Source: Nitrosopumilaceae archaeon (lineage in GTDB: Archaea > Thermoproteota > Nitrososphaeria > Nitrososphaerales > Nitrosopumilaceae). Taken from it: a stretch of DNA of 64,000 nt. Positions within the stretch are counted from its first letter, which is position 1; every line of letters begins with the position of its first letter. Both the position numbers and the translations under genes were made by a program. The stretch lies in assembly GCA_965207375.1 (NCBI GenBank), contig CBDBMG010000002.1:448001-512000 (forward strand), read 5' to 3'. Below, in pieces: positions 6,375 to 63,273 of the stretch. Below the pieces are notes generated by a model. The model did not search any database, was not told where the DNA came from, and saw only the letters and a program-made list of their open reading frames with translations.

Positions 6375-6509
6375 TGTAGTGTATAGACTGACTATCTATA
6401 TTTAGAATGATTATATATAGGTTGCACGTGATTGCTTGTACTATAAATATATACCTCGTGTTATTGAATTATTGTAATAATCTTGAATCCAATACAACTG
6501 TATTGTACA
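6375..6509 (+). repeat. 5' LTR
   Basis: TGTAGTG...TTGTACA, identical to 10403-10537. Confidence 0.95.
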
Positions 6510-6527
6510 TGGTGTCAGAAGTGGGAT
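6510..6527 (+). promoter_or_regulatory. Primer-binding site (tRNA-Leu)
   Basis: TGGTGTCAGAAGTGGGAT directly after the LTR; complementary to a tRNA-Leu 3' end (..ATCCCACTTCTGACACCA). Confidence 0.85.
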
Positions 6528-6531
6528 AACA

Positions 6532-17981: not shown

Positions 17982-18539
17982 AATGTCATAATACACTCTC
18001 TCACACAGATATACGTACATACAAATTTGGGTACCAGAATAGGGGGTCATTGGGGGCATTGGGGGCATTTGCCCCATAGTTTTTAATGAAATTTCCATAG
18101 AAACTATTTTCAATAAAAATGTGCATTTTGCTACATCTTTTTGGTTCCCACACTTAGCTAAATAGCTTCAGGCATTCCTGCACTGAACAAATAATATATA
18201 CATACACAACACACGCACATATAGCTATACTTGTAATATAGCTACATGCACATACTTGCACATAGCTACGTATACATAAATACACATGTGCACACTTATA
18301 ATAATAATATTATTATATACGTAGCTGGCTATTTATATATTGTGTTTTCTTACATACCTATAGTGTTGTTATACATAGTTCCTCTAGCTACTGCTGTAAT
18401 GAACGTGTGCATAAATTTCTATTGAATATTTTTATTCAAAGATTGTGATTACATACATTGTGGTTTCATGCAGGTGTGAGTATGATAATTATGTGATAGA
18501 ACAAGTTTATGGCTAGCTACGTAGTTAGTAGTTTTCTGC

Positions 18540-19175
<636 letters not shown>

Positions 19176-19181
19176 CACTGC

Positions 19182-19667
19182 TAGCGCTGTACCTAATATG
19201 CCAGAATAATTTTGGAACAAAAAGAATTAAGAATTACTACATGTACATGTAGCTATGCTAAAATAATGATAGGGCAAATTTTAACTATGCTATACTATAA
19301 AACCAACCTGTCTAGTTTAAAGTACAAAACACTTACTTTTATTAAACTCTCTAGTATTCTCTGATAAAATTAAGGTTAAAAATGCTGCTACATGCAAAGT
19401 CTTTAACAAATGAGTTGTAAATTTAAACCCATAATCAAATATTTCTTGTGTTCATGATATTAACAACTTCATATGCTGCAGTGGGCATTTTCTAGCGCAT
19501 TTAAGGTAATAGCTAGCTAAATGTTAGATTGTGTACTTAATTTGTATAGATTTAACTTAAAAGGGTGGTTTTTATTAAGGATAAATTTAGATTAATACTG
19601 AGGTAAACTTTATAAAAGAATTTCTAGAAAGAATAATAGGATTATAAGCATAATAGGTACAGCCTTA
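19182..19667. mobile_element. Degenerate hAT-like MITE related to 50941 and 53913
   Basis: TAGCGCTGTACCTAATATGCCAGAATAATTTT / AAGCATAATAGGTACAGCCTTA termini. Confidence 0.5.
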
Positions 19668-21437: not shown

Positions 21438-24400
21438 TTAAGTTGGTTTTGTTTCAGCATAGGTAACATGGTTATCAGCTTTCATAAATTTTGGCACTTT
21501 ATTACCCAGTTGTATTTCTGCATAGTTCAGCTTAGGTTGCAGTGGAGGAGTGGACTGTAAATGAAACTTATGCTGATATTTAGTGAAATAATTTTAAAAG
21601 TATACCCACTTCATCTTCATCAATGTTGTCATTATGGAGTGATTCGTCAACATGATGATTATCAATTGATGGTTCATGAATAGTTTCAGATTCTTTTGTA
21701 TTCTGTACAACACAATAAAATAGATTATTTGATGGTCGTTGTACATATACATACATAATGATATATGATATGTATATACGTAGCTACATAGCTACACACA
21801 CAATGTACTGTTGCTACGTATTATACTATATAGTAGGGCTGGGCAGTACTGATATAATTAGCTACATATATTATGAAAAAATTACTGTGCTGTTACAATA
21901 TATCGCAGTATCTTTGTACCTGCAAATGCACTCTAAAAATTAGCTAGCATCTAGCTATAACTTGCCTATGAATGTGGTATATATAATCACATTTTTGTGC
22001 ACATTCAGGAAAACCCTGGATTCTAAAACTACATCACAGTTATGTATGTGACTATGTTTGTACACTGTTATTATATGTTTTCCCTTCAGCTAACTACCTA
22101 TATAGCTATATTTATTTGCCTGTAAATCTTAATTGTTCTATGATATAACAATTTTTGCGATGTTACAAATACTTCAACATTATTTCATTGTGCTACCCTC
22201 ACCTTCATCTGCAGATACATACTTGCTTAGAATTATCGTCAGTACCTGGCTCAACGACAAATGCATCTTAGCTCTATTTTCATGATCTTTGCTCAATCTC
22301 ATTAAATTTTTTACTCGTCATTTTTCAGAATCACTCACTATCTAGTCTCTACAGAAGACAAATAGTTACCAGCAACTATCCCCACTACTGAGGTCATGGG
22401 ATCGAGCATGGGATGCATCACCACTTTTAATTTATAAACTATGAAATTCAGTCAATACCGCAATAATATTGATATCACAATAATACCGTTTCAGTAAGTC
22501 TTCATGATACGGTTACCATCTCAGATTATCGTGATATTACTATAATATAGCTAACTATGTATATAACTAGGATACCACCCAGCCAGCCCTACTGTATAGC
22601 ACAAAATGTTTAATGATGGAAAATTTTGACAAATGAGATCAGCCTTACATACAAATGGCAAAAATATTTTTCCTGTCAAAATTTTGTACTTTATGGTAAT
22701 TGGTTAAATGGTGTGCTTTCGATAGAACCACCCTCTGATAGTCATCACATAGCAATACATTACAAATGCCTTGTGCAACATTTTCAAATGAATAAATACT
22801 CCAGCTAATTGCCATAACAGCATGAAATTATAGTAGCTGGCACTAGTTGCAGTGAAATACAGTAGCTACGTATATATAGTAAACAGCTGTCAACAACACA
22901 TATCTCTTGGCTTCTCACTTTCAACTTGTGTAGCAAGTAACATTGATGTAACCATAGCTCATGATCATGTGATCATGTGGCCACAGTGTAAGGATTTTAG
23001 TTTTTCTGTTATTAATTTCAACAGAAATTTCTTAATGAGTTAGTATAGTAGTAGTATTATTTTGCTAAATACACAGCTTTTCACTAAAGGTATTCAAATG
23101 AAGACTGATATGAGCAATTTGAAAATATGTAGCTATAGGCCTTGCACACACAATGACACCTAATGATATGTAGATAATTACATGTATGTACATACTTGAT
23201 TTGCTGCATACATATAGCTACGTACGTATATAACATGGTACGTATGCATGTATGTATCATGGCAATCACATTTTAAACTTACTAAGTGTGTAGAATCTGT
23301 AGACCAGGCTGGGGTTGGTCCAGATACTGCATACTACAAGTGTAGATTATTACATCTACTGACTGCACTTAAACCATTTTAAAATACAGAACTACATATG
23401 TATCTGTATATGCACACAACATGACCAAACATATGTGACCGAGTCTGCAAAAAAAGGTCTTATCTGCACATCCAACTGTACACATTCAGTAAGCCATAAT
23501 TTTTCTTGTGAATTAGCTAACAATTAATACAAAACTTACACCATTTATAGTACTATGCTTGGACTCTCTTGTATCAAATTGGTATGCCTATAGCTATCCC
23601 ACAGGCTGAGTTATGTGCCTTCACAATCATAAAATTGTATGTGCAGATAATTTTTGCAGGCTTGGTCACATACATATATAAAGCCACCATAAATACGTAC
23701 TAAGCTATATTTATAATTATGGCATAATTACATAAACAACAGGTACGTAAGTACATATGTATGTAGCATCTCACTGGTGATGCTAAATCATGACTTGTAT
23801 TATCATCCTGTGTTTCAACATAACTAAAGATACATATCATATTAATTTATGTGTTTACACTTCATAATCATAACACATTACCAATTATCCTCTGTCTTTC
23901 TTCCTGAATTTACATCTAAAAATGAATATTTGTATAACATAACACATCAATAACAAGTAGCATTTACAGTACATTGTGATATCAAAAGTGTTAGATACTA
24001 TTATAATGATAATTATAATAAATCCAATTACCACAACTGCTACAATAATTGTAATTATTATTATTGTTAATGAACTGCCACCAGACCCAGTGTTTTCATC
24101 AGATTGGTCAACATCTAAAAACATAGGTTGTAGTTACAGTAAGTTTCTAGCTATAGCTACATAGTAGCTACCATTTTAAATCTATATATATATATGTACA
24201 TACAATATATAGCTATATATAGAGTCTACACAAATTAAAATGATTTGAAAGACAGTCAAGTAAAAACATGCCTACAGTCATTAGCTAGTAATCTTGTTAG
24301 AGTATTTTGCAAAATGAAAGCACTTAGCTATATAGCTAGCTATTTGCAAGATAATATAAAAACCAAAGATCAATAAAATTAATAGCTTTTGCTAGCACAG

Positions 24401-26758
24401 AATTCAAAGTTTGGTTAAAGAGAAGTGTGATTGCAATACTGAAAGTTATGGTAGAGTTAAGTAGTAGATGCAACTACTATGATGCAGAGAATCTTGTGAT
24501 TCTGCCTTCTGCATGATTTACACTAAAGGCAATACAGCTTATAAAGTAATATTTATACGTATATACAGAGAGTATTGTCCAACACCAAAAAGTTAGTTGT
24601 GCTTTTACAAACTATAGCTACTATTTATAAGAACCTAGCTAGGTAGATGCATTTTTGCAAAGTGACCAATTTTTGCTTACTATAGAGAATAATTAGCTAC
24701 ATATTATGTAGTTAAGCTGCTTACTGGGTGATGTCATATTTGCCGTATCTGGCATACCAATGGTTCTGTTATATATAATAACTGTTGCATTACTTCTTTG
24801 TTCTTTAATGTCAACAACTGTAATATTTATTGTATATGTAATTTTTGTGTCGTTATCCAGATGATCAAATAAAAGAGTGGTTTTGTCAGTTTTTTCTGAT
24901 AGCACTTCAACTTCACCAGAATAAACTCGTACATCATAGTGTTTAATTGCAAACATAGAGCAATTGTTGATTTCTGGTGGCTGTAAATGTACATAAACCA
25001 TCATACACAGTACATACAGATACATAATCTGTAAAAAATATTTTTTGCAGCTAACATATGTAGGTACACAAATTTCCGTCAGTCATGTACATACCTTCCA
25101 CATTACTTGGACTGTATCATTACTTATTTCTTCAATTTCAATACTATTAACATTAATAGAATTAGGAGCTACAAAGAAAAATAGCATCCACAACTCACAA
25201 TTATGTACATAGCTAAGGTATAGATAGCTACAGCAAAATAATAGCTAATAATTAGTCTATATAGCAATAACAGCTTAATAACTACGTAGCTATAATTATT
25301 ATAATGATTAATGTACATACGTAGCAGACTGAAAAAACTTACGCTTTGATAAGTAAGTCCTCACAGATTTGTTAAGTATTCTATAACTACCATTGTGTAA
25401 TGATGTAACTGTAATATCATAAACTGTATCATTCTGCAGTCCATCAATGGTGTATTTAGAGCCACCGTCCATGTCTGGATGTATGACATTGCCTGATATT
25501 GTAACATTACGTGACACATCTCCACATGTTGGATGACTGTGAATATTCAGTGATATGATAATTGATGTAGTGCAAATTTCTTCCTCATTAATAATAACAG
25601 ACAATGGATCTGTTAATGATACGTACGTATAGTTTATTATATTTATTGCCTGTACTATTGCCTTACCCACTACTGTCATTATTCCTACACTGCTTATTAC
25701 TGAACCACCTACTCTTGGGAATATACACTGATATGATGACTGATTGTGTGTCATATTTACTGGACCAACTAATAATTTACTATTAGTACCATTGTTGTCT
25801 CCACTGGTTATATCAGGCAACCATTGTAGACCATTTATGAGTCCATTAAAGATGTCGTCTCTATCAACAGTATCATTACTAATGATACTACCATCAGCAC
25901 TTCTAAAGACTATCCTCCAGTTTGGTATTGCAAGAGTAGGATCAGTTCCATTGAATCCACAGTAACATTCTGCCATAACATTGATACATACAGTTGTATC
26001 CTGTGGTCCATTGGTAATTTTGAAGCCTACGTATGTAAAATACTATTAAACTATCAATAGCTATGTGAGCGTGAAAACTGTAGTATACCATATATGACAA
26101 AATAGTCAAGGTGGAAAACTTTCGCAGATTTTGCGTTTTTTGCTCAATTGCGAAAGTTTTCCTGTCGAATCTTTCACTAGACTATGCAGTATGCATTCAT
26201 TAGCTATTACAAGAAGCTTCTACTGCGAAAGTTTTCACGTTGAATGTCCATTTTTGTTCTAATTGTGAAAGTTTTCCCCCTCAAATGTTTTGTTGTATAT
26301 GGTAGCTACTCCATCAGTCATGAAATTATACACACATGTACATATTAGTAGGCATGTATCAAATTACATATAATTATTAAAAGAATGTCTAACCTACGTA
26401 TATCATCTTATGAATATTAAAGCTTTCCAAACAACAATTATGAACTAACTAGCCATAGTTGGGGTAACTACTGTATGGCACAAAATTTTGATGGGGAAAT
26501 ACTGATGGATTTGATGAATTTCTAGCAACTCAAAAAATTACCATCAAAAATTTTTCTTTAGCAGCTGTTTGTATATCAGGCTGATCTAAGTCATCAAAAT
26601 TTATTTGTCAAACTTTTTCACCATCAAAATTTTGTGCTATGTTACATATATGGTTCATAAATAATATGGCACATTTAGCTTTGCTTACTTTGTGTACTTT
26701 GTGACAAATCACTGACAAGTAGTATCATAAAAGAAATAAAATTAGTAAAATCTTTCAT
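21438..26758 (-). CDS. Receptor gene A: signal peptide, Ig-like, FN3-like x2, TM, cytoplasmic tail with ITIM and ITIM-like motifs
   Basis: Phase-compatible GT-AG exons: 26758-26689 (signal-peptide-like), 26026-25667 (Ig: C..PNW..YQC), 25609-25343 (FN3: YTIDGLQNDTVYDITV), 25168-25095, 24980-24725, 24114-23968 (TM), 23915-23882, 23823-23775, 23333-23283, 21702-21610, 21554-21438 (..PKLNYAEIQL..NHVTYAETKPT*). Splicing just after the TM is uncertain. Confidence 0.75.
21834..22591. mobile_element. hAT-like MITE in an intron of gene A
   Basis: TAGGGCTGG / CCAGCCCTA termini; TSD CTATATAG / CTGTATAG (7 of 8 match). Confidence 0.65.
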
Positions 26759-26894
26759 ATTCTATGCATTGTATGCAATTTTGTCAGTAGCTGCAGTTTT
26801 CAGTCTTGTAGGATATCAAGTTTACTTCACAGGCCAATGGTGATTTACCTAGGCTAGATAATTATGCATTAACTGTAGGTAGCTAGGTACTTGG

Positions 26895-42605: not shown

Positions 42606-43299
42606 TAAGGTAAGGCGGGGCAATTTCGTACATAATTTACGTTCGCCTTCATAACTTCTGATCAATACAATCAATTGCTACCAAACTTGGTTACAAATAC
42701 CATGTGTTTATGCACTCTATGCATACCAGATTGTAAGCAATTCGGCCAAGCCGTTAGGAAGATATGGTGCAAAATTTTCGGAGATGTCAAAAAACGTGTA
42801 TGGGGTAATTTCGTAAATTTCTGCTACAAGCTGCGAAGATCAGCAATCCCACTTTAATGCAAGAAAACTGGTAGAAAACAGGCTATAGAGCAAGATGAGT
42901 CCTTAAATCAGCCGCAGATTCTCTGCAGCACTATTCAGATCGACTCTCTAATACAAGTCAGTATATAATGAAATTAGTACATAAACTAGCTTGTTCACGA
43001 GCTTGTTCATGTTGTTCAACAAACACAGAGGAACAACACAAGTAAGTATAGCTCGCTAAATGTAGTCTGCTTGCTTAGACTAAATGTACGCAGTATTTAA
43101 GTCGTGGTAGCATATCAAAATTTGCAGCAATAAATTTGTTTTTCTTGTTTTGGTACAACCTACAAGTTATACTCGACGGATTATCTTGTATAGGACCTGA
43201 ATTAACTCACGACAACTAGTGTATAAAAACCTAAGGCTTCATACTATAGATAGCTATATATAAATTGCCCCGCACTCGGAATTGCCCCGCCTTACCTTA
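42606..43299. mobile_element. MITE
   Basis: TIR TAAGGTAAGGCGGGGCAATT / AATTGCCCCGCCTTACCTTA. Confidence 0.7.
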
Positions 43300-43356
43300 A
43301 AAGCGGGACGGAAGACGGGGACAGGGATTTTTAGATGGATGGGGACCTGGATTTGG

Positions 43357-43916
43357 ACCAGCCGATTATGCCAGCATAATTTTGAGCATAAATAGGTAGC
43401 ATTAAGCATAATAGGAAGTGTTTGGTTAAATATATTATTAAAGATCGATATACTCTAATAGAACACTCACCATAATTTGTACTCCTGCACATGTACTGCA
43501 ATGGAGTAGGAACAATAATCACATTGGTGTGGATGCAGATTTTATTTTTAATATACATAGCTACTGTGAACTAACATGCATGTGCTAATTCTGAGCAGCT
43601 TAGCTATACCTAATGAGAGTATATTGAACTGCATGAATTTCACAAAATGTGCAGTGCTCTTTCTCACGGGATGCGGTTGCACCCCCTGTTCCTACTCCAC
43701 TGTACTGTAGTGTATAGAACTGTAGATAAAACAATCACCAAGTGAATATAAAATGCATAGAATGTGATTGTTCCTACTCCACTGCAGTAGTACACATTAT
43801 GATGAGTGTTCTATTAGAGTATATCGATCTTTAATAATATTTTTAACCAAACACTTCCCATTATGCTTAATGCTACCTATTTATGCTCAAAAATTTGCTG
43901 GCATAATCAGCTGGTA
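43357..43916. mobile_element. Foldback MITE with ~165-bp TIRs
   Basis: 43357-43525 is the imperfect reverse complement of ~43765-43916. Confidence 0.7.
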
Positions 43917-44365
43917 TTTATTGATTCGGATAACCTGCATGGATGCAAGCCTGGACTGTGTGACTCTTGAAACTACACAACTATTTATTATAAATCCTAT
44001 ACAAGAGATTAACTAACTAGCTAACTTGTATCACTATCATAACAGTGATAATATAGGCTATACAGAGTACTAGTAAACCTGGGGTCAAGAGTTTAATTCT
44101 CTTCTAGATTTGTTTATTTACTGTGCCTTTCTGGAGCTGTTTATTTACTTCAAATACATACTGTATGTTACTATGTAAACCATAAGCTATAGCTATGTAT
44201 GTCACTTCCATTATGTTTTCATATTTACACACTGTGGCTACAGATATGTACCCACCGAAGTAAATTTGAAGTACTTACAAAAACATAATACATATACTGC
44301 TTACATTTTGTTGAACTGGATTATGTAATTTAGATTTAGAACTGGATTATGAACAGGGGTAAAAT

Positions 44366-44869
44366 GTTATAGGAGTCTTGTGCGCCCCATATTGGAGTAT
44401 GCATGTGTTGTGTGGTCCCCTTACCTTAAGAATAATACAAATAAATTAGAAATAACACAACAACGAGCTGCTAGATTTTCTATTAATAACTATGACAATT
44501 ATGCTAGTGTCACAAATATGCTCAAATACTTAGGATGGCCTACATTAGAACAAAGATGCAAAGAACTGAGGATTCTCATGCTCTTCAAAATAATGAATCA
44601 GCTGGTTGAGTTACTTTCAGGGGGTCTTTTAATTCCTATACAAGAGGGCACAAGAAGAAATTTTGGCAGTTTCAAACAAGAATAGATAGCTATCAAAACT
44701 CCTTTTTCCCTGATGCTATTAAATTATGGAACAAGTTACCTGATCATTTAGTTGATATTACTGACTTAAATACTTTTAGGGAAGGATTAATAATTATGTA
44801 ATTACACACACCAGCATACACATGTACAACAATACTCAAATTGAGTCCTATACATTAATGATAATAAGA
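44366..44869 (+). mobile_element. 5'-truncated LINE (CR1/L2-group) 3' end
   Basis: Translates to the RT C-terminus YRSLVRPILEYACVVWSPY..QQRAARF..SVTNMLKYLGWPTLEQR; TAA-repeat tail; candidate TSD GGGTAAAAT (44357-44365, 44870-44878). Confidence 0.85.
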
Positions 44870-45932
44870 GGGTAAAATCTATCAAAGGCGTTGACTAGGA
44901 TAACCTGGATGTGACTCTGAAACAACACAACTATTTATTATAAATCCTATACAAGAGATTAACTAACTAGCTAACTCGTATCACTATCATAGCAGTGATA
45001 ATATAGGCCGATACTATCTAATAGAACAGTCACTAGTATTAATCTATCACTGCCATATTGTTCTAGCTCAGTGGTTAGAGCACCAGAGTAGTAAACCTGG
45101 GGTCAAGAGTTCAATTCTCTTCTAGATTGTTAATTTACTGTGCCTTTCGCTTTGCCCACCCCTTAATTAAAATACCAGTCAGTATATCAACTGTCGGTAT
45201 CATTTAAAAGTAACACTACCCTACTGTAGATTGTGTAGTATAAAAAGGTAGCCCCAGAAGAGAATTGAACTCTTGACCCCTGGTTTACTAGACCAATGCT
45301 CTAACCACTGAGCTATAGGGGCTTTCTATGTGTGCACTCATTTCCAGAAATTTAATCTACGTATGTGTTGATACTGTAAGAATGTATGTACATAGTATGT
45401 ATAGAGCATTTTTACATAAGTGCACTGTATATTGAAGCAAATAAAAAACATGAGTCCCATAAGAGGATTGAACTCTTGACCCCTAGTTTACAAGACCAGT
45501 GCTCACCACTGAACTATAAGGGCTTTATTAATGTGCAAGGTCACTTTCAGAAATTAAAATATTGCAGCTCCACGTGAGTAATGTATGTATATACGTAGCT
45601 GCGTGGCTTGCTGCTTGCTCCACTAGCTAACTATCCCCTTTTTGCCATTCATATGTGACCTGGCCAGTAAAAATGGACCAAATTGATACATACATAAAAA
45701 TTTTTGCTACTTTGCTGAATCATATTGATCATCACTATGAAATGTTTTCCTAAATGAAGGAATATAGTGTAGGCACTAATCATTATTGACTGCTTTATTA
45801 GAGAGTATCAATCAAATGTGCTACTCATATTATTTGACTTCAGGTATGGGGAGTCATTGAGTTTACAAAAGAAAAACAAATGTCTTCCTTATTTGTTATC
45901 ATATGATGTATGGTATGGCAAAATAAAAATAG

Positions 45933-46005
45933 AGCCCCAGAAGAGAATTGAACTCTTGACCCCTGATTTACAAGACCAGTGCTCTAACCACTGAGCTACA
46001 AGGGC
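45933..46005 (-). tRNA. tRNA-Thr(UGU)-like; best-preserved copy, possibly a pseudogene
   Basis: GCCCTTG TA GCTC AGTGGTTA GAGC A CTGGT CTTGTAA ATCAG GGGTC AAGAG TTCAATT CTCTT CTGGGGC T folds as a cloverleaf with one U-U mismatch in the acceptor stem. Confidence 0.45.
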
Positions 46006-46848
46006 ACTTAGCATTGAAATTTTATTTATGATAAGTTATTTCCTTGGGCAATAGCTACATAGCACTGGTCTTGGTCAATTTGGCAATAGCTAGATAGCAC
46101 TGGTCTTGGTCAAGAGTTCAATTCTCTTCAGGGACTATTTTTATTCAAAAGACATTTGTGATGAATTAGTATGTACATAGATTTTATAATAATCTTGAAA
46201 AGCTACATATACATTGTACGTACAGTACGTATGTACTTTCACCTAACACATAGCCCTTGCAGCTCTGTGGTTAGAGTGCTGGTTTTTTGTAAACCAGAGG
46301 TCAAGAGTTCAAATCTCTTCAAGGGCTTAACATTTCTATTTCTCCATTGCAAACTTTAATATCATCACTAAATTATAAGTTACTATGAATAAGTGGAAGC
46401 AGTAAATAATTTTGCACAAGAACAGCAGTTCTAAGCAAGTTTTGAGTGGTAATGGTGTCTTCTTGTGAAACCTGAGCAGTTCTACTACTGAATCAAATGG
46501 CCTTTCATATTCTTTACTTCCATCAACAACATATTTTTCTCACAACAACATCCTATCCACAAATTTTGCACAATGCCAAATGAATAAAAGCCTACAGGAT
46601 CTCTTAAATAAAACAACCATCAATGCTACATTGCTATCTTTTTCAAGTGCTGATTCAGTTGCCTTTTGATCATTTTCTCCATGATACCAAGGCAAGGCCA
46701 ATGGATTGGGACTAGCACTACTTGAGCTTTAATGCAGGCTTTTCCATTTGGTGGGTGGTTTAACATTGGAAGGAGTTGCAAATGTGTTGCGCCCTCCAAT
46801 AGGCATTGCATTAGCAGCTGGCCCTTGAGGCAATTGGTTGATTTGGGG

Positions 46849-47224
46849 GGCTGTAAAAAAGTGCGAGGCCAATCAGAAGCCACAATGGTTATAAGCGACC
46901 AAAACCTCTGATATCGAGTAAGGCCAAGAAGTTGAACATTTTATGAATCCTTTTACTTGAATGACATACAATAGTTTACAGGGCATTTTCACAACTATGA
47001 TTGGCTTTGTCACTTGGCCACCTTTTTGTACTATCATCTTTTATATTTAAGGTGGCCAAGTGACAAAGCCAATCATAGTTGTGAAAATGCCCTGTAAACT
47101 ATTGTATGTCATTCAAGTAAAAGGATTCATAAAATGTTCAACTTCTTGGCCTTACTCGATATCAGAGGTTTTGGTCGCTTATAACCATTGTGGCTTCTGA
47201 TTGGCCTCGCACTTTTTTACAGCC
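46849..47224. mobile_element. Foldback MITE with ~175-bp arms (truncated second copy ~48666-48926)
   Basis: GGCTGTAAAAAAGTGCGAGGCC.. / ..GGCCTCGCACTTTTTTACAGCC; arms appear perfectly complementary. Confidence 0.85.
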
Positions 47225-47559
47225 AGGCTGTTTTTGTTTAGTCTAATACAACAGTCACCTCAAAACATTTTATTTTTAATACAGTAGATACTTGAAGTAA
47301 ACAATATCATCATCTCTAAAATAGGCTATAATAACTGGTATAACATGCATCCTGTAATGACTGGTAACCACTTCTCTAATACAGCAGTCACCTTAAGTAT
47401 GAATATAATTATGTTATGTACATGCATGCATATGTACTTACAACATATTGGTAATAATATACAGCACTCACCCTAAAATATTTTGCGTAAATTGTAAAGT
47501 TGACTATACATAATCATCTATACATGGATGCATGAATAATCTCAGTACATGTATGGCAT

Positions 47560-48180
47560 GCATATCACATACTGGCATACCATTTTCTAATAGAGCAGTC
47601 ACCAAAAAACCTTTAGGTAAATTGCTATAATTATGCACCATAATTATAACATGAAAAATAATATCAATACATATATATAGGATGCATATACATATGGTAT
47701 GTAATACATACCATTTTAATAGAACAGTCACCTTAAGATTCTTTAAGTAAATGGATGTATACAGAAGTTTGCAATATTGCATAACCCATATATACATGCA
47801 CCATAATAGGATGCATGCATAATATCAATACATATATAGGATGCATACATACCACATACTGGTATGTAATACATACCATTTTAATACAGCAGTCACCTTA
47901 AGATTCTTTAAGTAATTAAGTAAATGTATACTGAACCATATATACATGCATCATAATAGGATGCATACATAATATCAGTACGTATATAGGATGCATACAT
48001 ACCACATACTGGTATGTAATACATACCATTTTCTAATAGAACAGTCACCTTAAGATTCTGATTGCATGCATACTAAAGTTTATAATATTGCATAACCATC
48101 TATATATGCACCATAATAGGATGCATACATAATATCAGTACATGATGTCATACCATATATAGGTATGAAATACATACCAT
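47560..48180. repeat. Degenerate tandem repeat, ~150-165-bp unit
   Basis: Recurring ATAGGATGCATACAT..TGGTATGTAATACATACCATTTT..CAGTCACCTTAAGATTC. Confidence 0.8.
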
Positions 48181-48590
48181 GTTATAATCATCTCAAAATA
48201 CTCGAGTAAACTACATAAATTTTAAATTTAGGAATATTGTCTGATCATCTGCACATGCACTTGGTACATTATGATAGTTATACAAGGATATAAATATCCA
48301 TAACATATATCAATATCAGTACATACCATATAATGGTATGCGTAACATTCCATTATTGGTATGTTTGCATAACATACCTATGGTATGAACCATCTGTGGT
48401 ATGTATTTCACTCCTTTCGGTATGGTTTTCATACTTTGTTTTTTGCTGTGTTAAGATGACAAATGTATTGCTCTTGCCAGGCTGGTGCAATTTCATGAAT
48501 AGCTATTTATAATGTGATATACACATATGCACCATAAATGTTAACTACGTAACGTATGTATAAGTGCATTTTCAGTTTCCTACAACGTAC

Positions 48591-48650
<60 letters not shown>

Positions 48651-49444
48651 TAAACAAAAACACCTTGGTTGTATAAAAAGTGCGAGGCCAATCAGAAGCC
48701 ACAATGGTTATATAAGCGACCTAAAACTCTGATATCAAGTAAGGCCAAGAAGTTGAACATTTTATTAAGAATTCTTTCACTTGAATGACATACAATAGTT
48801 TACAGGGCACTTTCACAACTATGATTGGCTTTGTCACTTGGCCACCTTATAAAAGATGATAGTACAAAAAGGTGGCCAAGTGACAAAGCCAATCATTGTT
48901 GTGAAAGTGCCCTGTAAACTATTGTACACTACCAGCAACTTGAGTAATGAAATATCTATTATAATCCCATGAAACATCAAATGATGCCATGACTCATACC
49001 ACGAAGTTTTAATTTCATGGGTAGTTCATGATAACAATGATATACACATGAAATTAGCAAAAAAATTCATAGGTTCTTCAACTATGAAAATCACATGAAT
49101 TTAAATTTCATGGCTTTGGGACATACCATGAATTTTTCTTCAATGCATTCTACAAATTTCATAGGAGTTTCATGGGTCTGCTGATGATTCTTAAAGCTTA
49201 TCAGTTATATATCCAGCTACTTATATTTTGGTGGTGAGAAAGTTGTTAAATATGGTGCTCATCATTTTGATGCAGTTAGGATGATTATTAATTATCATGC
49301 ATACATAGCTATGTATTTGCCCTTTAACCTCAAAGTTTACATTTTATTATGCAACTGTATCTATAACTATAGTAACATGTGTTATGTATGCAGTAGGTTA
49401 ACTACACTAATGCTGATAGTGGAGACATATTTTAGTCTTTTACA

Positions 49445-49750
49445 GCTGCTGCATTTGTAGCCAATAGCTAGCTATTTTGAGCTGCTGTATTTGCAGCCAA
49501 TAGCTAGCTATTTTGAGCTGCTGTATTTGCAGCCAATAGCTAGCTATTTCAGTTCTTGCATTTGTAGTCAATAGCTAGCTATTTTAAGCTGCTGCATTAG
49601 CAGCCAATAGCTAGCTATTTCAGCCCTTGCATTTGTAGCTATTTTAAGCTGCTGTATTTGCAGCCAATAGCTAGCTATTTTAAGCTGCTGTATTTGCAGC
49701 CAATAGCTAGCTATTTAGAGCTGCAGCATTTGCAGCCAATAGCTAGCTAG
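49445..49750. repeat. Minisatellite, ~35-36-bp unit, about 8-9 copies
   Basis: Repeats of GCTGCTGTATTTGCAGCCAATAGCTAGCTATTTT(G/A)A. Confidence 0.9.
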
Positions 49751-50446
49751 TAACTAGAGATGAGTGTATTCTGACATACGTAGCTTATACCATATATGTA
49801 TATAGTCAAAATTTTTGTGGTACAAAATTTTCACGAAATTTGCAAGACAATTTGTCTTTGTGAAATCATAATTGTGAATATCACAGGCTAGAGTGTAATT
49901 GTTTTCTTTGATACTTTCCTAATTTTATGAAATAAAATCATGAAAATCCTATTTTGAAGCTTTACATAGAAATTTAGCTCCACAAAAATTCATACTATAG
50001 CTACACAGTTTATACATGTTTATATAGCTATATAAGTGTTTAATTATATGCATAAACTTTTGCTAATGGCTCATAGCTACATAGCTATCTATCTAGCTCA
50101 CTGATAAATAATTTGTTAATGTCATAGCAAAATTTGGTGCTTGCATGCCCTTGCGTTAGTTGTGTATATATTGTAGTGTACGTATACTTTAAGGGTTCTT
50201 ATCGATAATCAGAGATCACTCGTAATAAGAATGTGCCTATTCAGGATCCCCACAGTAAGGGTGTTGTTATTGACCCCTGTATAACATAATATGCATGACA
50301 TGTGAATGTTTACACATTGTATATGTATTGACGTCCATTGTCCACACATCAGAAAAATGTTTAAAGCATATGTATGCAGCTAGTTGAGGATATTTACATA
50401 CTATTTAATGGATAGGTCTAGTAGCCTTGATTGTCATTGTTACTCT

Positions 50447-52930
50447 CTATATGTTTTGGTAGAGGTGAGGACTCTTCTTATCTATGCTGACATAAGCTGG
50501 TGATGGCTGCATCTGTATATTATCCACATTGAGTTGTCTTTGTAATTGAACTGGAGGAATCGTAACAGCATCTATAGAATAATAATTATACAAAGCTACA
50601 TCAAACTGTACTATAAGTTACCATTGTTCCTCTTTTGACTGCACAGTTTCCAAGAGAGGATGACACTTATTGTAGTAGTTATTACTGAAGTAACTATAGA
50701 CACCACTGCTAGTCCAATAAATATTTCACAATGCCTTTCATCAGTTTTATTAGTGCTGTGTTCATTAACTGTTTCACTGCTTTCATTAACTGTATAAATT
50801 ACACTGTTATAATATGTTGATATCGCTACAGAGTTATCACTAGTTATAACTTATAACTATACATATGTATGCATATTATTTTAGTTGTATATTCAACTTA
50901 ACAACTAAAAAATTGTAAATTCATATACGTAGTATAGAGATAGGCTTGAGCCTAATGTGCTGGCATAATTTTGAGAATAATTTTATTGAGAATAATTCTA
51001 GAATTATAGGATGTTTATAAGCATAATTCGGGAATAGCTAATAGGACATTCATGAGCATAATGTATTAATAAAATAAGGATATTATTTATTCTTTGGACA
51101 TCAGTAGTTCAGTTTCATATGCGTTTTGCAGCCGATTATTGGAAAAATAATAAAGGAGTATAATAGGTGAAAAATTTGGAAATAAATTAAGAAAAATAGG
51201 TAATATTTTTAGGAAGAGTTCAGGAAGGAATAATACTTAGGTTAATTTTTGAGCATAATACGTACTCAAGCCTATATAGAGCCAATAATTATAATGCATT
51301 AAGTTTAGGTAGAACTTAACTATTCATGCAACTACTTACGTACATACCTGTTCTAGCTAATTGTATTTTTGCAAGCTTTCTAGCTATCAAACAGCAACAT
51401 TACACTAGCTATACCTCACAAAACCTTGCCATGTGTTGTTACAGACATGATGATATAATTATACACAATTGAATGGATACATAGCAAACACTTACTGGAG
51501 GTTATATTTTGTATGCCAATGGTCTTTGTAATAACTGTTGAATTACTCCTCTGTCCTTCAATGTCAACAAATGTAATGCTGATATTGAACATAAAGCTCA
51601 AATGATAATCTGAATGTTCAAATAAGAAATTTGTTGTATTGTAAATTCCATGAGATATTACTTCATCTTCATTTGAAATTCTTACATTATAGTGTTTAGT
51701 TGCTAGCATACAGCATTTGTCAATTTCTGGTGACTGTAAATGTAGATAAAATATCATATATACACAGTACATATGGCTTCATAATAGATATACATATATA
51801 TTCATATGTATGTATGTTACTTACGTAGTTACGTACCTTCCACGTTACTATCACATGATCATGCTAGTGACATCAATAGGATTAGGAGCTATAAGGAAAT
51901 ATATAGCATGCAGAACTAATTCATACATGATACGTAGTATGTACGTACAAGAACATAGCACAAAATAAGCAGCTAATGCAATTATTAGGTCATTATACAA
52001 AATTAATGGAAACTTACGCTTTGACAAGGAAGTCCTCACTGATCGATATACTATTCTGGAGCCACTATTGTATGTAGATGTAACTGTAATGTTGTACAGT
52101 GTATCACTCTGCAGTCCATCAATGGTGTATTTAGAGCCACCATGCATGTCTGGATATGTGACATTGCCAGATATTGTAACATTATGTGACACATCTCCAC
52201 ATGCTGGATGACTGTGAGTATTCAGTGATATGATAATTGATGTAGTGCAGATTTCATCCACATTGATAATAACAGATGGTGCATCTGTTAATGACAATTT
52301 GTTAAAAAGTGTTATTATACAGTGCCTGTATAGTTGTCTTACCCACTATTGTCATTGTTCCTACATTGCTTATTACAGAACCACCTCCTATTCTTTGAAA
52401 AATACACTGATATGATGACTGATTGTGTTCCATATTTACTGGACCAACTAATAGTTTATTATTAGTACCATTGTTGTCTCCACTGGTTAGATCGGGCAGC
52501 CATTGTAGACCATTTATGAGTCCATATGAAATGCCATCTCCATTAATAGTATCATTACTAATGATTCATTTCTAAAGACTATCCTCCAGTCTGGTACTAC
52601 AAAATTAGGATCAGTTCCAGTGAATCCACAATAAATTTCTGCCATAACATTCATACACACAGTTGTATCCTGTGGTCCATTAGTAATAATAAAGCCTACA
52701 ATATTATAAGAACAATACAATATGTAGCTTAGCTAGCTATGTACATGAATAATACATATAGCTTTATACAAACTTAGCTATATATATAACAGTTAAATAC
52801 TAAAGCAATTTTATAGTGTCCATAAATCCATCATTAGCTACTTACATGGTGTATTAGAAGAAGACACAGTGATCTTTATTAGTAGTAGTATTAGTAAAAT
52901 CACAATACAAAAACTACCAACATTCTTCAT
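50447..52930 (-). pseudogene. Receptor gene B: paralog of gene A with a different TM and an ITAM tail; frameshifted in this sequence
   Basis: Exons 52930-52846 (signal peptide MKNVGSFCIVILLILLLIKITVSS), 52695-52343 (Ig; 10-nt deletion vs A near 52567), 52284-52018 (FN3), 51888-51837 (22 nt shorter than A), 51733-51496, 50789-50622 (TM IFIGLAVVSIVTSVITTTISVILSW then KLCSQKR), 50571-50447 (..MQPSPAYVSIDKKSPHLYQNI*). Confidence 0.8.
50941..51275. mobile_element. hAT MITE in an intron of gene B
   Basis: TAGGCTTGAG / CTCAAGCCTA TIR; TSD TATAGAGA / TATAGAGC; homologous to 53913-54296. Confidence 0.8.
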
Positions 52931-58411: not shown

Positions 58412-61400
58412 ATGGTGTCTCAGGCCAAGCCTATATTCACCCAGAAAACCGAACCCATTGCTTGGGGGGATGCTTATGAGATCTTAGAGAATCCGCCATC
58501 TGTGCCAGAGTTGTGTGTCAAGGTACCACCAGTAAAGCCAAACGCGGGCGAAGTTTTTTGTTTTCTGCTACAGAAAATAGCAAAAGAAGTAAGTATAAAT
58601 ATGGTATGGTATAGCTATATCTATATATATCCATGCAGAGAATATATGCTTTTTACATGTGACTGCATGTCTGAACCCAAAACCAGACATTGTTCACACC
58701 TCCGATTCTGCCCACTTAATTGTTCATAAAATATTTTTGGAGTGCTATGCACATGCAGCTCAAATTTAAATGTAAGGCCAAACAAAGTTTAAAATATGTT
58801 TCTGGTCCTCCTGCCTGCCGGTGGTCATTTTTGTGACTGAGGTAGTGATAGTAACATTTTTGTTCACAGCATGCTGTTATAGTTACACTGTTTAAATAAT
58901 GTTGACAAAAACATTATCAAGTTTTACACTGAATAAAGAAATTTTATGTATTATCATAAAGTAAACAAAAATATAAATGGATTTTGACACAATTTAAGTT
59001 AAAAATAAAAATAAAAACCATGGTTGCCTGATTATATTTTGAAAGTTGGCTGGACCACAAACAGACATTTAACTTTGTGTGGCCTAATGTTATTTGTAGT
59101 GATATTATTACGATCATTTGAGGTATTTTACCGATTGCATGGCTAAATCCGAGTTAATTGTGTTTCGAGTGTATGACAATCCTTTAAAAGTTGTGTATGT
59201 AGCTATATAGCTGTAGCTAATTAATATCAGTATTGTCGTATAGCTATAATGTATATGTATTAATATATGTATACATGTAATCCATAACATTTTTATTATC
59301 ATCTTTTAGACGATTGGAGATGTGATCACTACAGGTGGTTTCAAAATGGTTGTAAAAATCTTCCAAAAGCAGAACCTAAAGTTAAGAAATATTACTTCAA
59401 TATAATGCAACCAGATAACAGCAACAGCAATGAATTTCAGAAGATAGTTTATCAATTACTTGACAATCAAAGTCTTTCTTTAATACAGTATTTAGGAAAT
59501 GATCTCAAAGCTATAGATTATTTACATGGGAATTGTAAAGCAGAAAATCCAAAACCGTACATTCGAACTTGCCCTTCAGTGATTGAAGAAATTAAAGGAA
59601 GTGACCCTTCAGAGTATGCATCAGCATTTTACAAGAAATCCTTATCTACAGCCAGCTGTCTTTCTACATCAAATCCTGCATTGCAGCTTCGAAATAGAAG
59701 ACAAGTTGTTAATCACAAATCACTCGAGCGTCAAAAAATCAGGCTTTCTCATGATGAATTATATAACATTCATGAAATTGCTTATGACCTTGATGGATTT
59801 ATAGCAAAGATTATAACGTATCCAGACCTTGTTATTGTATGTGGCCACCCAAAAATATTAAATGAAATGAGCAATCTTTTTGCAAATTGGTAGTATCACT
59901 CAAGGTCAACTATTTTCCTATGATACAACTTTTGAATTGGGTGACATATATGTTTCTGTACTCCTTATGCGCCATGTGCTCTTTAATGGTGCTCCTGTAA
60001 TTCCAGTGGCCTTTTTACTACATGAAAGAAAGCTTGCATCAGCCCATGGTGAATTTATGAAATTTATTTCCAGTGGATTTCCTACACTGAGTCAAAGTGA
60101 TCATCCTATACAATTTCCTATAGTTACAGATGAGGAAAAAGCCATTTGTTCAGCCATAGACAAGTGGCTACCCGGATTTATTCGTTTACGCTGCTGGAAT
60201 CACACATTTTCAGCAGCTAGATTTTGGTTAAAGAAACACTCTGCTACTTCACAAGAAATTCCAGTTTATATGGAAAATCTTCGATCACTTTTTCACACTA
60301 TTTCTATAGAAGAATATCAAAGTAATTTGAAAGAGCTGGTGGTAAGTATTATTATGCACACTTTACAATTATTTACCATATAGCTACCATAGCTAGCTAG
60401 GGATAATTTAACAAGGTAAAATTTGGAGTAGCATAGTTATATACAGATACTTTTGAATGGGGAAATGCTAACAAATCAATCAATACATGATTGCGCCATT
60501 GAAAATGGGCCTATAGTGGACACAAACTATACACATAGTTTAACTTCTACATGGAGGAGCTATTTGTTGTCTGTGAAAGCTTTCATATTAAATTACATAA
60601 TTAATTACGCTTTATGGAATTTTGTGTATATTACATAATAATGCTAGCTAGCTATGTATATACATATATATATGTATATAGCTGTATACGCATTAAGTAT
60701 TGTTATACTTTAATGAATAAGTAGCTAGCTATATAGCTAGTGGTTTATATTACTTAGGTAAACTGGAGTCAAGCTTTTGTGGATTACTACATGAATGAAA
60801 TCCATCCTGATGTGATCACATGCATTGGTAGATGGGTCTTAGAACCTCTAGGAGTCTATAATTGCTATAGTGGAGTAACAACAAATCAATCAGAAGGATT
60901 TAACACTGTTTTAAAGCGGCTTCAGAAATGGAGAGAAGCTCCACTTGATTCCATCGTATTTTCATTATATCAGTTGCAAAATTATTACTACAATGAAATA
61001 CAAAGAGGGTTGTGTCAGTGTGGTGACTACCAGTTATCCGCAGAGTTTGCCAGTTGTGCACGGGATCCAACTGAGGTTAAACTCAATGAGTCGATTTCTC
61101 CTCAATCAATAGTTGAAAGAGTTCAATCTGAAGGAGCCAATGTGATTGAACCTGCAGTTGCTACACAGTGCCTTGAAAAGAAATCCACAGCCAAATGCTT
61201 ATCCAGCCAAACTTCTCGAGCAAACTTAGTACTTACAGAAGATAGGATATCCTTTGATCCAAAGCTTGGTGTTTTCATTGTTAAAAACAGCGAAGGAAAG
61301 CATCATGCTGTTACCCTTTTTCCAAAGCAGACATGTACATGTCCATCGACAGCTGAATGTTACCATATAATTTCAGCAAAAATGAGTGTAGGCATGCAGT

Positions 61401-63273
61401 CTAAGCACGGAGAGTCAGTTTTAAATTTATCTCAATTAAGAAGAAACACAAGATCAAGAAAAGAAAAGAAATCTGGAAGGAAAAGGTTTGTGCCAACAGA
61501 TATTAATCCAGCACCAGACTCCATCGCAGCAAAGTCTTGTTTTGAGTCAACTGATGATGTCATTGATGTGAATGATCATCATGAAGGTACATAACTAAAC
61601 TGCATATCTCATGTATTAAATATATGTTTTCCAGTAGATTTAACTGAGATGGTAAAGTCTGATGCTGATGATGATAATTTTTCCAATACTGATGTTAATG
61701 CTGATTGTAAGTGTAGCTACATTATAATTCCTGTGATAAATGCTGTGTGTTTATATAACATGCTAGCTGCATTCTGTAATATTTTATTGTGCTCTAGATT
61801 CCAATGGAGAGATGTTGAGACTGTGGGAAGACTTGTCTGTAAAATACAAACAAGATCACATGGAAGATAGAGACATTGAATATATAGAAGTTAATCTGTA
61901 GCTATATGCAATTGTAATAGCTACGTACGTATATAAATATAAATTCTAAACACAGAAAAATGATGGAGATATTTTGATTTTTGTAAACATGGCTGTTCTT
62001 ATATGGACACAATATCGAAAATTCAATAAATTACCTGAATTGAGGAGAGAAGGAAATTATTTAGTAGTCACCAAAGAAGATAGAAGAAATTTCGATCATT
62101 TTCGACAACATCCTTTTTTTCTGCATGGTCCTGTTGTTTCAACGCCACTACTATTGAAATATATGAAAGTAAAGGGCATACCAATTACTTGTGAACAAGA
62201 GTTTGGTCATTCCTATGTTATGTCAATGCCTAAATGTGAATTTACTTTTGATGAGCTGGTTGAGTGGGCCAGAGAGGAGTTAGGAGGAAATGTAGAAGGT
62301 ATTTCATAATATATGTAGATTAAGTACATAACACGAAATTGACTACTTTAGCAACACTAATTTCATGTAAAGAGGATACTCAATCTGTTATATCAAGTCA
62401 AATGGAAGATCTTGCAGTTAAAGGTAAAATGCATGAAATTTTACTATATAGCTAACTATGCCTATATACATTGCATACTCAAGTTGATGAAGGAAGTAAT
62501 TCATGTATCGAAGTTGATGAAGACTGTAATGACATTACTGAAAATGAGCAAAGTATACATGCATACATACATGCACCTGTAGCAAATATAATTTGAATAT
62601 TTATATTAATTTTATGTATTTTACAGGAGGTTTAGAAAAGAAGTTCATGAGCATCGATCAGGACAAAGGTACAGATAGCTGAACAATAGAAGCACACAAA
62701 TAAATTTATGATGTGGGTAACCAGCTAATTTGGCACATTACATTAAATTAATGTGATATCATAACAACGTATTAACAGATAACAAACGACGAAAGCAGAG
62801 ATGTGGAATTTGTAGTGGCTGTCTTACAAAGGAATGTGGAGTATGCAATGCTTGTAAAGATAAGCCTAAATTTGGTGGTCAAGGGAAGCTGAAGCAGTGT
62901 TGTTTGCATAGAAGATGTAAAGAAATAATCTCCAGTATGTAAGAAAATATAAAGTGAATTTTTGTGATGTCTTTAATTGTAGCTATACTAGAGAGTAAAG
63001 AATTTAGAGGATACATACTTTCAAGATTCTGTAAATATCCTTGAAATCCATGAAAATTAGTATCCTCAAAAATAAGTTACTCTCCTAGAATTTTCTGTGT
63101 AACTGGCAAATTATCACCATCAACTGAGCTGTCTGCCTTTCCTATGCTGTGCACACGTGCATGCAAATCTTCTGTTCATATTCATGGTGTTTATATAGCT
63201 ATATATCTATTTTATTGCAGGACAAAATTCTAGGAAACGACCATTCATTAATCTGTATATGATTGCTGTATAG
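58412..63273 (+). CDS. Mutator-like (MULE) transposase with SWIM finger and C-terminal zf-CXXC, 11 exons (~978 aa after correcting two homopolymer frameshifts)
   Basis: Exons 58412-58588, 59310-60341, 60758-61586, 61635-61706, 61798-61889, 61956-62298, 62352-62423, 62484-62552, 62627-62668, 62779-62934, 63221-63273. Motifs DWRCDHYRW, SYDTTFELG, IVTDEEKAI, CWNH, TTNQSEGFN, SWIM CTCPSTAECYH. Frameshifts in T-runs at 58554-58559 and 59877-59881; last exon least certain. Confidence 0.78.
62779..62934 (+). other. zf-CXXC domain exon
   Basis: AG/GT-bounded, phase 1-1; encodes KRRKQRCGICSGCLTKECGVCNACKDKPKFGGQGKLKQCCLHRRC, matching CGxCxxC-CGxCxxC-KFGG-KQCCxxRxC. Confidence 0.92.

Follow-up and report, generated by a model that had tools for sequence, protein, structure and literature searches.

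V-type immunoglobulin/FN3 receptor genes with shared ectodomain exons and unrelated tails in demosponge-like DNA filed with a prokaryote genome

Neighbouring receptor genes that carry similar ectodomains on different tails raise the question of whether their products signal in opposite directions. This question is posed by two genes, here called A and B, in a stretch of 64,000 nt (the window; C3:448001-512000) from an assembly that is filed as one prokaryote genome, a Nitrosopumilaceae archaeon. The sequence-only reading of this DNA had proposed a pair in which A would inhibit through an ITIM (immunoreceptor tyrosine-based inhibitory motif) and B would activate through an ITAM (immunoreceptor tyrosine-based activation motif). 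In our view, A and B are probably two members of an undescribed large family of V-type immunoglobulin (Ig)/FN3 receptors from a demosponge-like host, in which tail modules have been swapped. The common architecture would consist of a leader, a V-type Ig domain, an FN3 domain, a second FN3-like domain, a single transmembrane (TM) helix and a tyrosine-bearing tail. The inhibitory/activating pairing is treated here as a hypothesis; behind it stand a motif that is common, a doubled motif that is rare and an ITAM-like pattern that occurs only in a gene which is probably dead.

The run data on gene A are Logan contigs of four runs (X1, X4, X8 and X12). X8 and X12 were taken as RNA-derived solely because their contigs skip introns exactly, while contigs from X1 and X4 run through introns. 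The two genes are made up of the following exons, each given with the evidence on which it is based.

26689-26758, minus strand: candidate leader (signal peptide) exon of A, suggested by an ATG, a hydrophobic core and a phase-1 donor (A/GTAAGC)
25667-26026, minus strand: V-type Ig exon of A, 360 nt, phase 1 to 1; splice sites, AlphaFold2 (AF2) model, Foldseek and VIA comparisons, conserved C22, W36 and C100
25343-25609, minus strand: first FN3 exon of A (FN1), 267 nt; family-level Pfam fn3 matches, profile matches in the PDB, X8 record 30 ending exactly at 25343
25095-25168, minus strand: second FN3-like domain of A, part one (FN2a), 74 nt; splice sites and the 74 letters between the pieces of X8 record 30
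24725-24980, minus strand: second FN3-like domain of A, part two (FN2b), 256 nt, donor A/GTAAGC; X8 record 30 piece 24723-24980 and a weak alignment to the Dysidea protein P0165
23999-24114, minus strand: stalk and TM exon of A, 3' end uncertain; acceptor TTTTTAG, Ile/Val-rich TM, an X8 contig over 24073, putative phase-0 donor GTATCT
21610-21702, minus strand: acidic cytoplasmic exon X of A, 93 nt, phase 0 to 0; borders from X8 record 25 and X12 record 10
21438-21554, minus strand: tail exon of A with LNYAEI, VTYAET and stop (21440-21438); X8 record 25, 3' untranslated region (UTR) to at least 21355
52846-52930, minus strand: putative leader exon of B, start at 52930, donor T/GTAAGT
52343-52695, minus strand: Ig exon of B, 353 nt (versus 360 in A), with a 10-nt frame-shifting deletion; 88.3% nucleotide identity to the A exon
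52018-52284, minus strand: first FN3 exon of B, 267 nt, open; Pfam fn3 at E 0.024
51837-51888, minus strand: FN2a exon of B, 52 nt (versus 74 in A), with a 22-nt deletion, frameshift and in-frame stops; comparison to A
51496-51733, minus strand: FN2b exon of B, 238 nt, open, donor A/GTAAGT; splice phases
50622-50825, minus strand: stalk and TM exon of B with the conserved motif ER[HY]CEIFIGL...SWKL; paralogs at C3:242.2 kb and 245.8 kb
50447-50571, minus strand: tail exon of B with YVSI, seven residues, YQNI and stop (50449-50447); follows a 50-nt intron, phases fit

That A and B are minus-strand paralogs with common Ig and FN3 exons, exon sizes and phases was borne out. By blastn, A 24776-26030 aligns to B 51529-52699 with 74.3% identity over 1272 columns. 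The block comprises four exons with identical splice phases, among them a first FN3 exon of 267 nt in both genes, and the second FN3-like domain is spread over two of the four (25168-25095 and 24980-24725 in A). Nucleotide identity between the exons falls from 88.3% (Ig) over 85.0% (first FN3) and 76.9% (FN2a) to 68.8% in FN2b, the most diverged shared exon with 37 of 79 residues identical; the introns lie below these values (67.9, 55.0 and 65.7%). Over 297 codons dN/dS amounts to 0.42-0.53, while dS climbs from 0.20 in the Ig exon to 0.75 in FN2b. The higher identity of exons compared to introns, the dN/dS ratio and the dS gradient fit a gene B that was once constrained and was inactivated recently, with exchange that is more recent at its 5' end. 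Similarity ends at the Ig-exon acceptor and about 50 nt beyond the last shared exon, and a sensitive blastn of the flanks up- and downstream yielded simple repeats only, with none upstream of the Ig-exon acceptor. Leader, TM and tail of A bear no similarity to those of B. The statement that the TM and tail exons are unrelated thus holds as well, and the tail peptides quoted earlier are indeed encoded (LNYAEI and VTYAET in A; YVSI and YQNI, separated by seven residues, in B).

A history that would account for this arrangement begins with the four ectodomain exons of an A-like gene, which may have reached, through duplication or gene conversion, a gene whose leader and TM/tail module were of another kind. 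On the same contig, this module of B appears to be present in two further genes as well. Two frame-breaking deletions would then have disabled B, as it is assembled.

What kind of domains do the shared exons encode? According to the AF2 model of the Ig exon of A, which was built from a diverse alignment of 84 sequences and reaches a predicted local distance difference test (pLDDT) of 97.0 and a predicted template modelling score (pTM) of 0.88, the N-terminal domain is a V-type Ig fold with a Cys-Trp-Cys core. A Foldseek search with this model returned at least 500 matches at E≤1e-3, led by Ig domains; Ig1-2 of DLAR ranked first, and ZIG-8/RIG-5, V domains of antibodies and T-cell receptors and D1 of Kirrel/Neph were also found. 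In VIA, the model superimposes on antibody V domains and Kirrel D1 with Z of 12.0-12.7 and a root-mean-square deviation (rmsd) of 2.2-2.8 over 97-107 of 119 residues. C22, W36 and C100 are at least 90% conserved in the 84 sequences, and among distant matches to the Ig profile of the family there are proteins with Pfam Ig_3 and I-set. At the family level, the second domain is probably FN3: PF00041 (fn3) is found in 12 of 17 family members (best E 1.4e-5), A itself giving 0 matches at E≤0.1, and the family profile matches FN3 domains of Dscam, fibronectin and receptor-type protein tyrosine phosphatases (RPTP) in the PDB with E values from 5.5e-4 to 0.08. The third domain (FN2a plus FN2b) has no Pfam match of its own and is described here as FN3-like, judged by its sequence pattern and a weak alignment to P0165. 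An AF2 model of Ig plus FN1, made from a shallow alignment of 17 sequences that included translated intron, was not usable (pLDDT 43.7). A language-model atlas also points at Ig/FN3 proteins (score 0.92), which we treated as a lead only. Taken with the AF2, Foldseek and VIA results for Ig and the family-level Pfam matches for FN3, the earlier assignment of an Ig and FN3 ectodomain on type I membrane proteins is supported.

The two genes are not isolated. A search with the open reading frame (ORF) that spans Ig and FN1 gave 216 protein matches at E≤0.01 among 354 candidates, nearly all of them unnamed ORFs on long ENA contigs. Among the matches listed, members are clustered: one contig of 3,565,261 nt carries 12 and another, of 560,414 nt, carries 10. 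The Ig profile found 157 matches at E≤1e-3 among 1.84 billion representatives. A and B are members of a large clustered multigene family, undescribed to date, of Ig superfamily (IgSF)/FN3 type I membrane proteins that is probably from a sponge. Sixteen of the proteins were looked up; the three that have a eukaryote name are all from the demosponge Dysidea avara, in agreement with the proposed early-branching animal source. XP_065899723.1 (P0165, 410 aa) is an uncharacterized protein with leader, Ig, FN3, FN3, TM and a short tail, XP_065916324.1 (P0277, 295 aa) is an uncharacterized protein with leader, Ig, a single FN3, TM and a short tail, and XP_065884121.1 (P0136, 255 aa) is named 'receptor-type tyrosine-protein phosphatase H-like'. 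Like A, the Dysidea proteins have a homologous N-terminal Ig domain (profile E 9e-30 to 3e-40) and the order leader, Ig, one or two FN3, acidic stalk and TM. They differ from A in that identity is only about one third, and they have no described function. The alignment of P0165 to A extends across Ig and FN1, with 34% identity (E 1e-27), and the translated intron falls into a gap. When the six-frame ORFs of contigs C2-C4 (approximately 2.1 Mb of host DNA) were searched by profile, no family Ig exon came up besides those of A and B. A search for related loci with the family alignment produced 47 pattern matches in genome contigs and 65 in metagenome contigs, of which 0 were confirmed in either set, and in a search for longer proteins none of 1,351 candidates was scored. 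The best-scoring representative in the Ig-profile search, P0124, is a 7,432-residue 'immunoglobulin domain-containing' protein, matched in 34 stretches, from the archaeon Methanolapillus millepedarum. The match lies mostly within the first 40 positions of the profile and probably reflects a general Ig-like repeat pattern rather than a specific relationship.

An animal source may seem at odds with an assembly filed as a prokaryote genome with a completeness of 99.95 and a contamination of 0.06. The assembly consists of four contigs, C1 with 2.16 Mb and three others (C2-C4) that total about 2.14 Mb at a G+C content of 37%. The window has eukaryotic traits, namely short GT..AG introns, a hAT-type transposase, a long terminal repeat (LTR) retrotransposon gag-pol and long (CA)n tracts, and C3, the contig examined among C2-C4, is animal DNA with introns, retrotransposons and sponge-like genes. 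As the window is eukaryotic, the gene pair sits in host DNA that was binned with the prokaryote assembly. Marker-gene checks are blind to host contamination of this kind.

Gene A is intact and transcribed. X8 record 30 (699 letters) has pieces at 25461-25343 and 24980-24723, between which there are exactly 74 letters, the length of FN2a, and a single X8 contig with the same depth as this record (21.1) covers position 24073, which belongs to the TM exon. In X8 record 25 (360 letters), 21702-21610 is followed at once by 21554-21355, a GT..AG intron of 55 nt being skipped, and X12 record 10 contains the same exon X (21610-21703) plus 50 further letters. The X8 and X12 contigs thus show that the ectodomain of A is spliced to the TM exon and that the tail exon is spliced to exon X, an additional cytoplasmic exon of A (21702-21610) that was absent from the first description of the gene. 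The joins of A are thus seen from FN1 over FN2a and FN2b to TM and from X to the tail; the step from TM to X is not among the contig rows listed. In a similar vein, the A tail may be called transcribed, its tail exon being spliced to X, and of its two motifs only LNYAEI fits the ITIM pattern. As an observation on the side, the X8 contigs differ from the window at 18 of 258 positions in FN2b, while the FN1 exon has 4 differences in 119 positions and exon X has 0 in 93. For comparison, the intron contigs of X4 deviate by about 1-3.5%. FN2b may be a hypervariable domain, or the X8 contig may come from a close paralog.

Four points favour an in-frame, coding link between the TM exon and exon X, a join that we infer. 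First, GTATCT at 23999, the sole donor past the TM by which the frame is maintained, is of phase 0 and matches the phase 0 of exon X. Second, X and tail together read as 69 open codons in the phase-0 frame. Third, the X-exon paralog ORFs P0122 and P0123 differ by an in-frame indel of five codons (15 nt) and are identical in 22 of 26 aligned residues. Fourth, two deletions set the X8 allele apart, one of 3 nt at 21499 within the reading frame and one of 4 nt at 21399, past the stop in the UTR. P0122 and the Ig-FN1 paralog P0007 each reside on a contig of 69,160 nt. If the donor at 23999 is used, A would be a protein of about 450 residues, closing with an acidic stretch and with two YAE[I/T] motifs, of which the first is an ITIM fit. 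Enumeration of open exon chains between the TM exon and 21702 led to 160 chains and no clear winner.

Several observations weigh against the reading favoured here. There is no significant Pfam match on A's own exons, and as Pfam is silent on A, Ig and FN3 identity had to be shown by other means. The third domain aligns only weakly, albeit in a consistent position, to the second fn3 of P0165 (E 0.022). The identity of the host rests on the three named relatives among the 16 proteins, all from one species, and the two with complete C-termini, P0165 and P0277, have tails of 37 and 12 residues without a tyrosine. X8 record 30 differs from the window in FN2b by 7% (the 18 positions given above), for which reason it may represent a divergent allele or a very close paralog. 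There are unplaced letters in the X8 contigs, 67 upstream in record 25 and 248 in record 30; layouts for them were tried from per-bin depth sums, and several fit about equally. The deletions in B are known from the assembly alone, and a comparison of the assembly with X1 contigs reveals small indels elsewhere, for instance at 26874. Finally, the TM-to-X junction of A is absent among the contig rows listed, the other GT donors past the TM (23968, 23914 and 23882) all give a stop on joining the next exon, and unspliced read-through past the TM stops at a TAA (23887-23885).

The last of these points leads to the possibility that the protein encoded by A ends soon after the TM, at this TAA or at a stop created by the splice junction, in which case 21702-21610 and 21554-21438 would be 3' UTR or belong to a non-productive isoform and the ITIM-like peptide would not be made. 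The read-through frame is open for 38 codons past the TM and ends in a basic, stop-transfer-like stretch, three of four plausible donors are unproductive as just described, and the tails of the Dysidea relatives P0165 and P0277 are short. Still, we consider such a truncated A unlikely, given the open frame over both exons, the in-frame indel between the X paralogs, the placement of the 3-nt and 4-nt indels of the X8 allele within the frame and after the stop, respectively, and the rarity of a doubled YAE motif, to which we return below.

Gene B presents itself differently. Judged relative to A and to the family consensus, it has lost 10 nt of its Ig exon (between 52568 and 52567), after which there is a stop at 52516-52514, and 22 nt of FN2a (between 51863 and 51862), followed by stops from 51853-51851. 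Neither length is a multiple of three, and the larger deletion would remove seven residues that are present in both A and P0165. An intact ORF from leader to tail is not found in B as assembled, in which these two frameshifts preclude a full-length protein, and B is therefore probably a pseudogene in its assembled form. The remaining exons are open from leader to tail, with strong splice sites and fitting phases; the intron between TM and tail has a G/GTAACT donor and a TTCTATAG acceptor. There is no basic residue in the TM of B.

The B-type TM/tail module occurs elsewhere on the contig. For the TM exon of B, two paralogs exist at a distance of about 250 kb, at C3:242.2 kb (E 4e-11) and at 245.8 kb (E 1e-6), each of which is followed by a related tail exon after a short phase-1 intron, and the motif ER[HY]CEIFIGL...SWKL is invariant across B and the paralogs. 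One of the paralogs has an FN2b-like exon upstream (30% over 74 residues, pairwise E 1e-5). Both tail tyrosines of B are invariant in three of three tails. Conservation of the tyrosine motifs among paralogs is thus seen for the tyrosines themselves (both kept in 2/2 paralogs) and not for the ITAM spacing and the +3 residues: the two paralog tails have their tyrosines 16 and 17 residues apart versus 10 in B, and the +3 position is taken by F and P/S after the first tyrosine and by V and V after the second. They also contain an extra KQY[FL]N. Because spacing and +3 residues differ, the exact ITAM pattern is peculiar to the broken copy B. In the region L003 (C3:238001-254000), the two B-type copies appear as tandem genes or fragments on the minus strand at L003 3993-4376 and 7462-8016, with three tail tyrosines each (KQY[FL]N, SPxY, YEIV). 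The FN2b-like exon of one of them lies at L003 10104-10370, and no family Ig exon was found near these B-type TM/tail genes. A cysteine just outside the B-type TM recalls disulfide-linked signalling chains.

How telling are the motifs? LNYAEI in the A tail fits the ITIM pattern [SIVL]xYxx[ILV], and VTYAET fails because of the T at +3. In B, YVSI, seven residues and YQNI fit the ITAM pattern Yxx[LI]-x(6-8)-Yxx[LI]. The chance rates come from counts over the C-terminus of every six-frame ORF on the host contigs. By chance, at least one ITIM occurs in 3,230 of 23,015 C-termini of 38 residues (14%) and in 1,078 of 4,858 C-termini of 69 residues (22%), and a single ITIM match is therefore weak evidence. 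The ITAM pattern is rarer, with 273 of 19,534 C-termini of 41 residues (1.4%), and two YAE within 38 residues were encountered in 1 of 23,015 C-termini (0.004%). The doubled YAE motif of A is not likely to be due to chance.

With these rates at hand, a working pair can be weighed, in which A recruits an SHP-like phosphatase through its ITIM and B a Syk-family kinase through its own ITAM, the frameshifts in B being artefacts of assembly or haplotype. Similar ectodomains on unrelated tails are what such a pair would look like, the leader, FN1, FN2b, TM and tail exons of B are open with fitting phases and strong splice sites, its tyrosines are invariant in all three tails, and the ITAM pattern is uncommon among random C-termini. 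Syk-family kinases are reported from sponges onward, sponges themselves possessing one (PMC9601881). Against this stand two independent deletions in B, each followed by stops, the larger of which, even without a frameshift, would take away seven residues from an FN3 strand region, the deviating tyrosine spacing and +3 residues in the paralog tails, the failure of VTYAET, the high background of single ITIM matches and the TM of B without a basic residue. All in all, we regard a working pair as very improbable, and the proposal of the sequence-only reading is not upheld in this form. The ITAM tail on B persists as a pattern, on a gene with a broken frame and with a spacing unlike that of both paralogs.

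The same tyrosines may be read in a way that dispenses with immunoreceptor motifs. A and B would then belong to an adhesion or recognition family of the Ig-type cell adhesion molecule (IgCAM) kind, and their tyrosines would be YxxPhi sorting or endocytosis signals or general docking sites for SH2/PTB domains (YxN in the B-type paralogs). YAEI, YVSI, YQNI and YEIV are all of the Yxx-hydrophobic type, the paralogs have KQY[FL]N, and one Dysidea relative bears the name of a receptor-type phosphatase. Among the closest structures are D1 of the adhesion molecules Kirrel, Neph1, Rst and Duf as well as Ig1 of LAR-type RPTP, which share the fold of the A Ig domain with Z of 12.3-12.6 and an rmsd of 2.2-2.5 over 97-99 residues; sequence identity to the A Ig domain amounts to 14-22%, and likeness in fold is no proof of a shared function. 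Divergent Ig and Fn3 regions have also been described for sponge aggregation factor (AF)-associated proteins (PMC11670116). What speaks against this alternative is the doubled xYAE[I/T] in A with a distance of about 21 residues, rare by chance as shown above. Such doubling resembles tandem ITIM layouts. We judge a purely IgCAM-type role to be rather unlikely and prefer V-Ig/FN3 receptors with swapped tail modules.

For receptors of this kind, it is conceivable that the ectodomain binds a ligand at the cell surface, upon which phosphorylation of the tail tyrosines would provide docking sites for SH2 proteins and the outputs of the two tail modules would differ. These steps, including phosphorylation, binding partners and any inhibitory or activating meaning, are inferred.

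Among known systems, the Alr family of Hydractinia is instructive. According to Huene et al. (2022; PMC9546547), it combines V-set, I-set and Fn3-like regions, with ITAMs in 14 proteins and ITIMs in 2. Like the A/B family, it is a clustered multigene family with pseudogenes that encodes single-pass proteins with a V-set Ig missed by Pfam, an Fn3-like membrane-proximal region, diverse tails and ITAM/ITIM patterns in some members. It differs, as judged from the published description only, in having I-set domains in positions 2 and 3 where the A/B family has FN3, and genetics has proven that Alr1 and Alr2 act in allorecognition, a proof to which the A/B family offers no counterpart. The AF-associated proteins with divergent Ig/Fn3 are linked by their authors to adhesion and allorecognition; unlike A and B they are reported, again by description, to be secreted without a TM or a glycosylphosphatidylinositol (GPI) anchor and to carry Ig/Fn3 at the C-terminus (PMC11670116). 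A full-text literature search (sponge/Porifera combined with ITIM/ITAM/immunoglobulin/FN3) returned Alr papers, Botryllus work and reviews, and no sponge ITIM/ITAM receptor among the 36 papers listed out of 48 matches.

Vertebrate paired receptors (KIR, LILR, SIRP, Siglec) have similar ectodomains on different TM/tail modules within one cluster, and their activating partners usually carry a basic TM residue and borrow an ITAM adaptor. A and B are alike in that neighbouring genes combine similar ectodomains with different TM/tail modules and in that LNYAEI fits the ITIM pattern. B is unlike the vertebrate activating partners, being devoid of both a basic TM residue and an intact frame, and there is no homology beyond the Ig fold.

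The significance of the locus depends on what the tails do. Gene A offers a concrete transcribed candidate for a V-type Ig/FN3 receptor with a doubled YAE motif, and exon-level swapping of signalling modules, as seen in the family, is a route by which vertebrate paired receptors arise. Should the tails act by way of SH2 phosphatases and kinases, the ITIM/ITAM logic would be older than the separation of sponges from other animals; should they not, the family would still be a large, unannotated and lineage-specific set of IgSF surface proteins. Since the family goes undetected by Pfam, it would also escape Pfam-based surveys of immune repertoires. Sponges either fuse with conspecifics or reject them, and they have dense communities of symbionts to manage; in the literature searched, no family of cell-surface immunoreceptors whose tails signal through tyrosines is described for them. 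Going further, one might speculate that demosponges have a clustered, fast-evolving V-Ig/FN3 family built like vertebrate paired receptors, with near-identical ectodomains shuffled between two kinds of tail, the ITIM type of A and a B-type activating module, cysteine-linked and rich in tyrosines, that signals through Syk/Src kinases. We consider this a long shot. If true, it would place balanced recognition of the ITIM/ITAM style, of self and non-self or of symbionts, at the base of animals.

The remainder of the window and of the assembly gave rise to some minor observations. ORFs at 46336-46728 (minus strand) with a WYHG motif had been considered 'SH2-like' and were rejected, neither piece having a Pfam match at E≤1; PF00017 has no match at E≤1 in the whole assembly. 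The hAT-type transposase at window positions 340-2607 (minus strand) appears intact, with an open frame of 755 codons, DUF4371 and a hAT C-terminal dimerisation domain. The LTR-retrotransposon gag-pol at 6487-10393 (plus strand) comprises a zinc knuckle, aspartic protease, RVT_1, RNase H and integrase core and is split over several frames. Long, imperfect (CA)n/(TG)n microsatellites at 18449-19233 and 41014-41494 cause strong GC skew and long spurious ORFs in all frames. At 59288-61594 (plus strand), three consecutive long ORFs of 201, 170 and 278 codons, the first and third without a Pfam match at E≤0.001, may represent an unclassified mobile element or a host gene. Lastly, C4:9879-13706, at the start of its contig, and C3:242062-245890 give identical tblastn scores and are probably a haplotig or a redundant assembly of one region.

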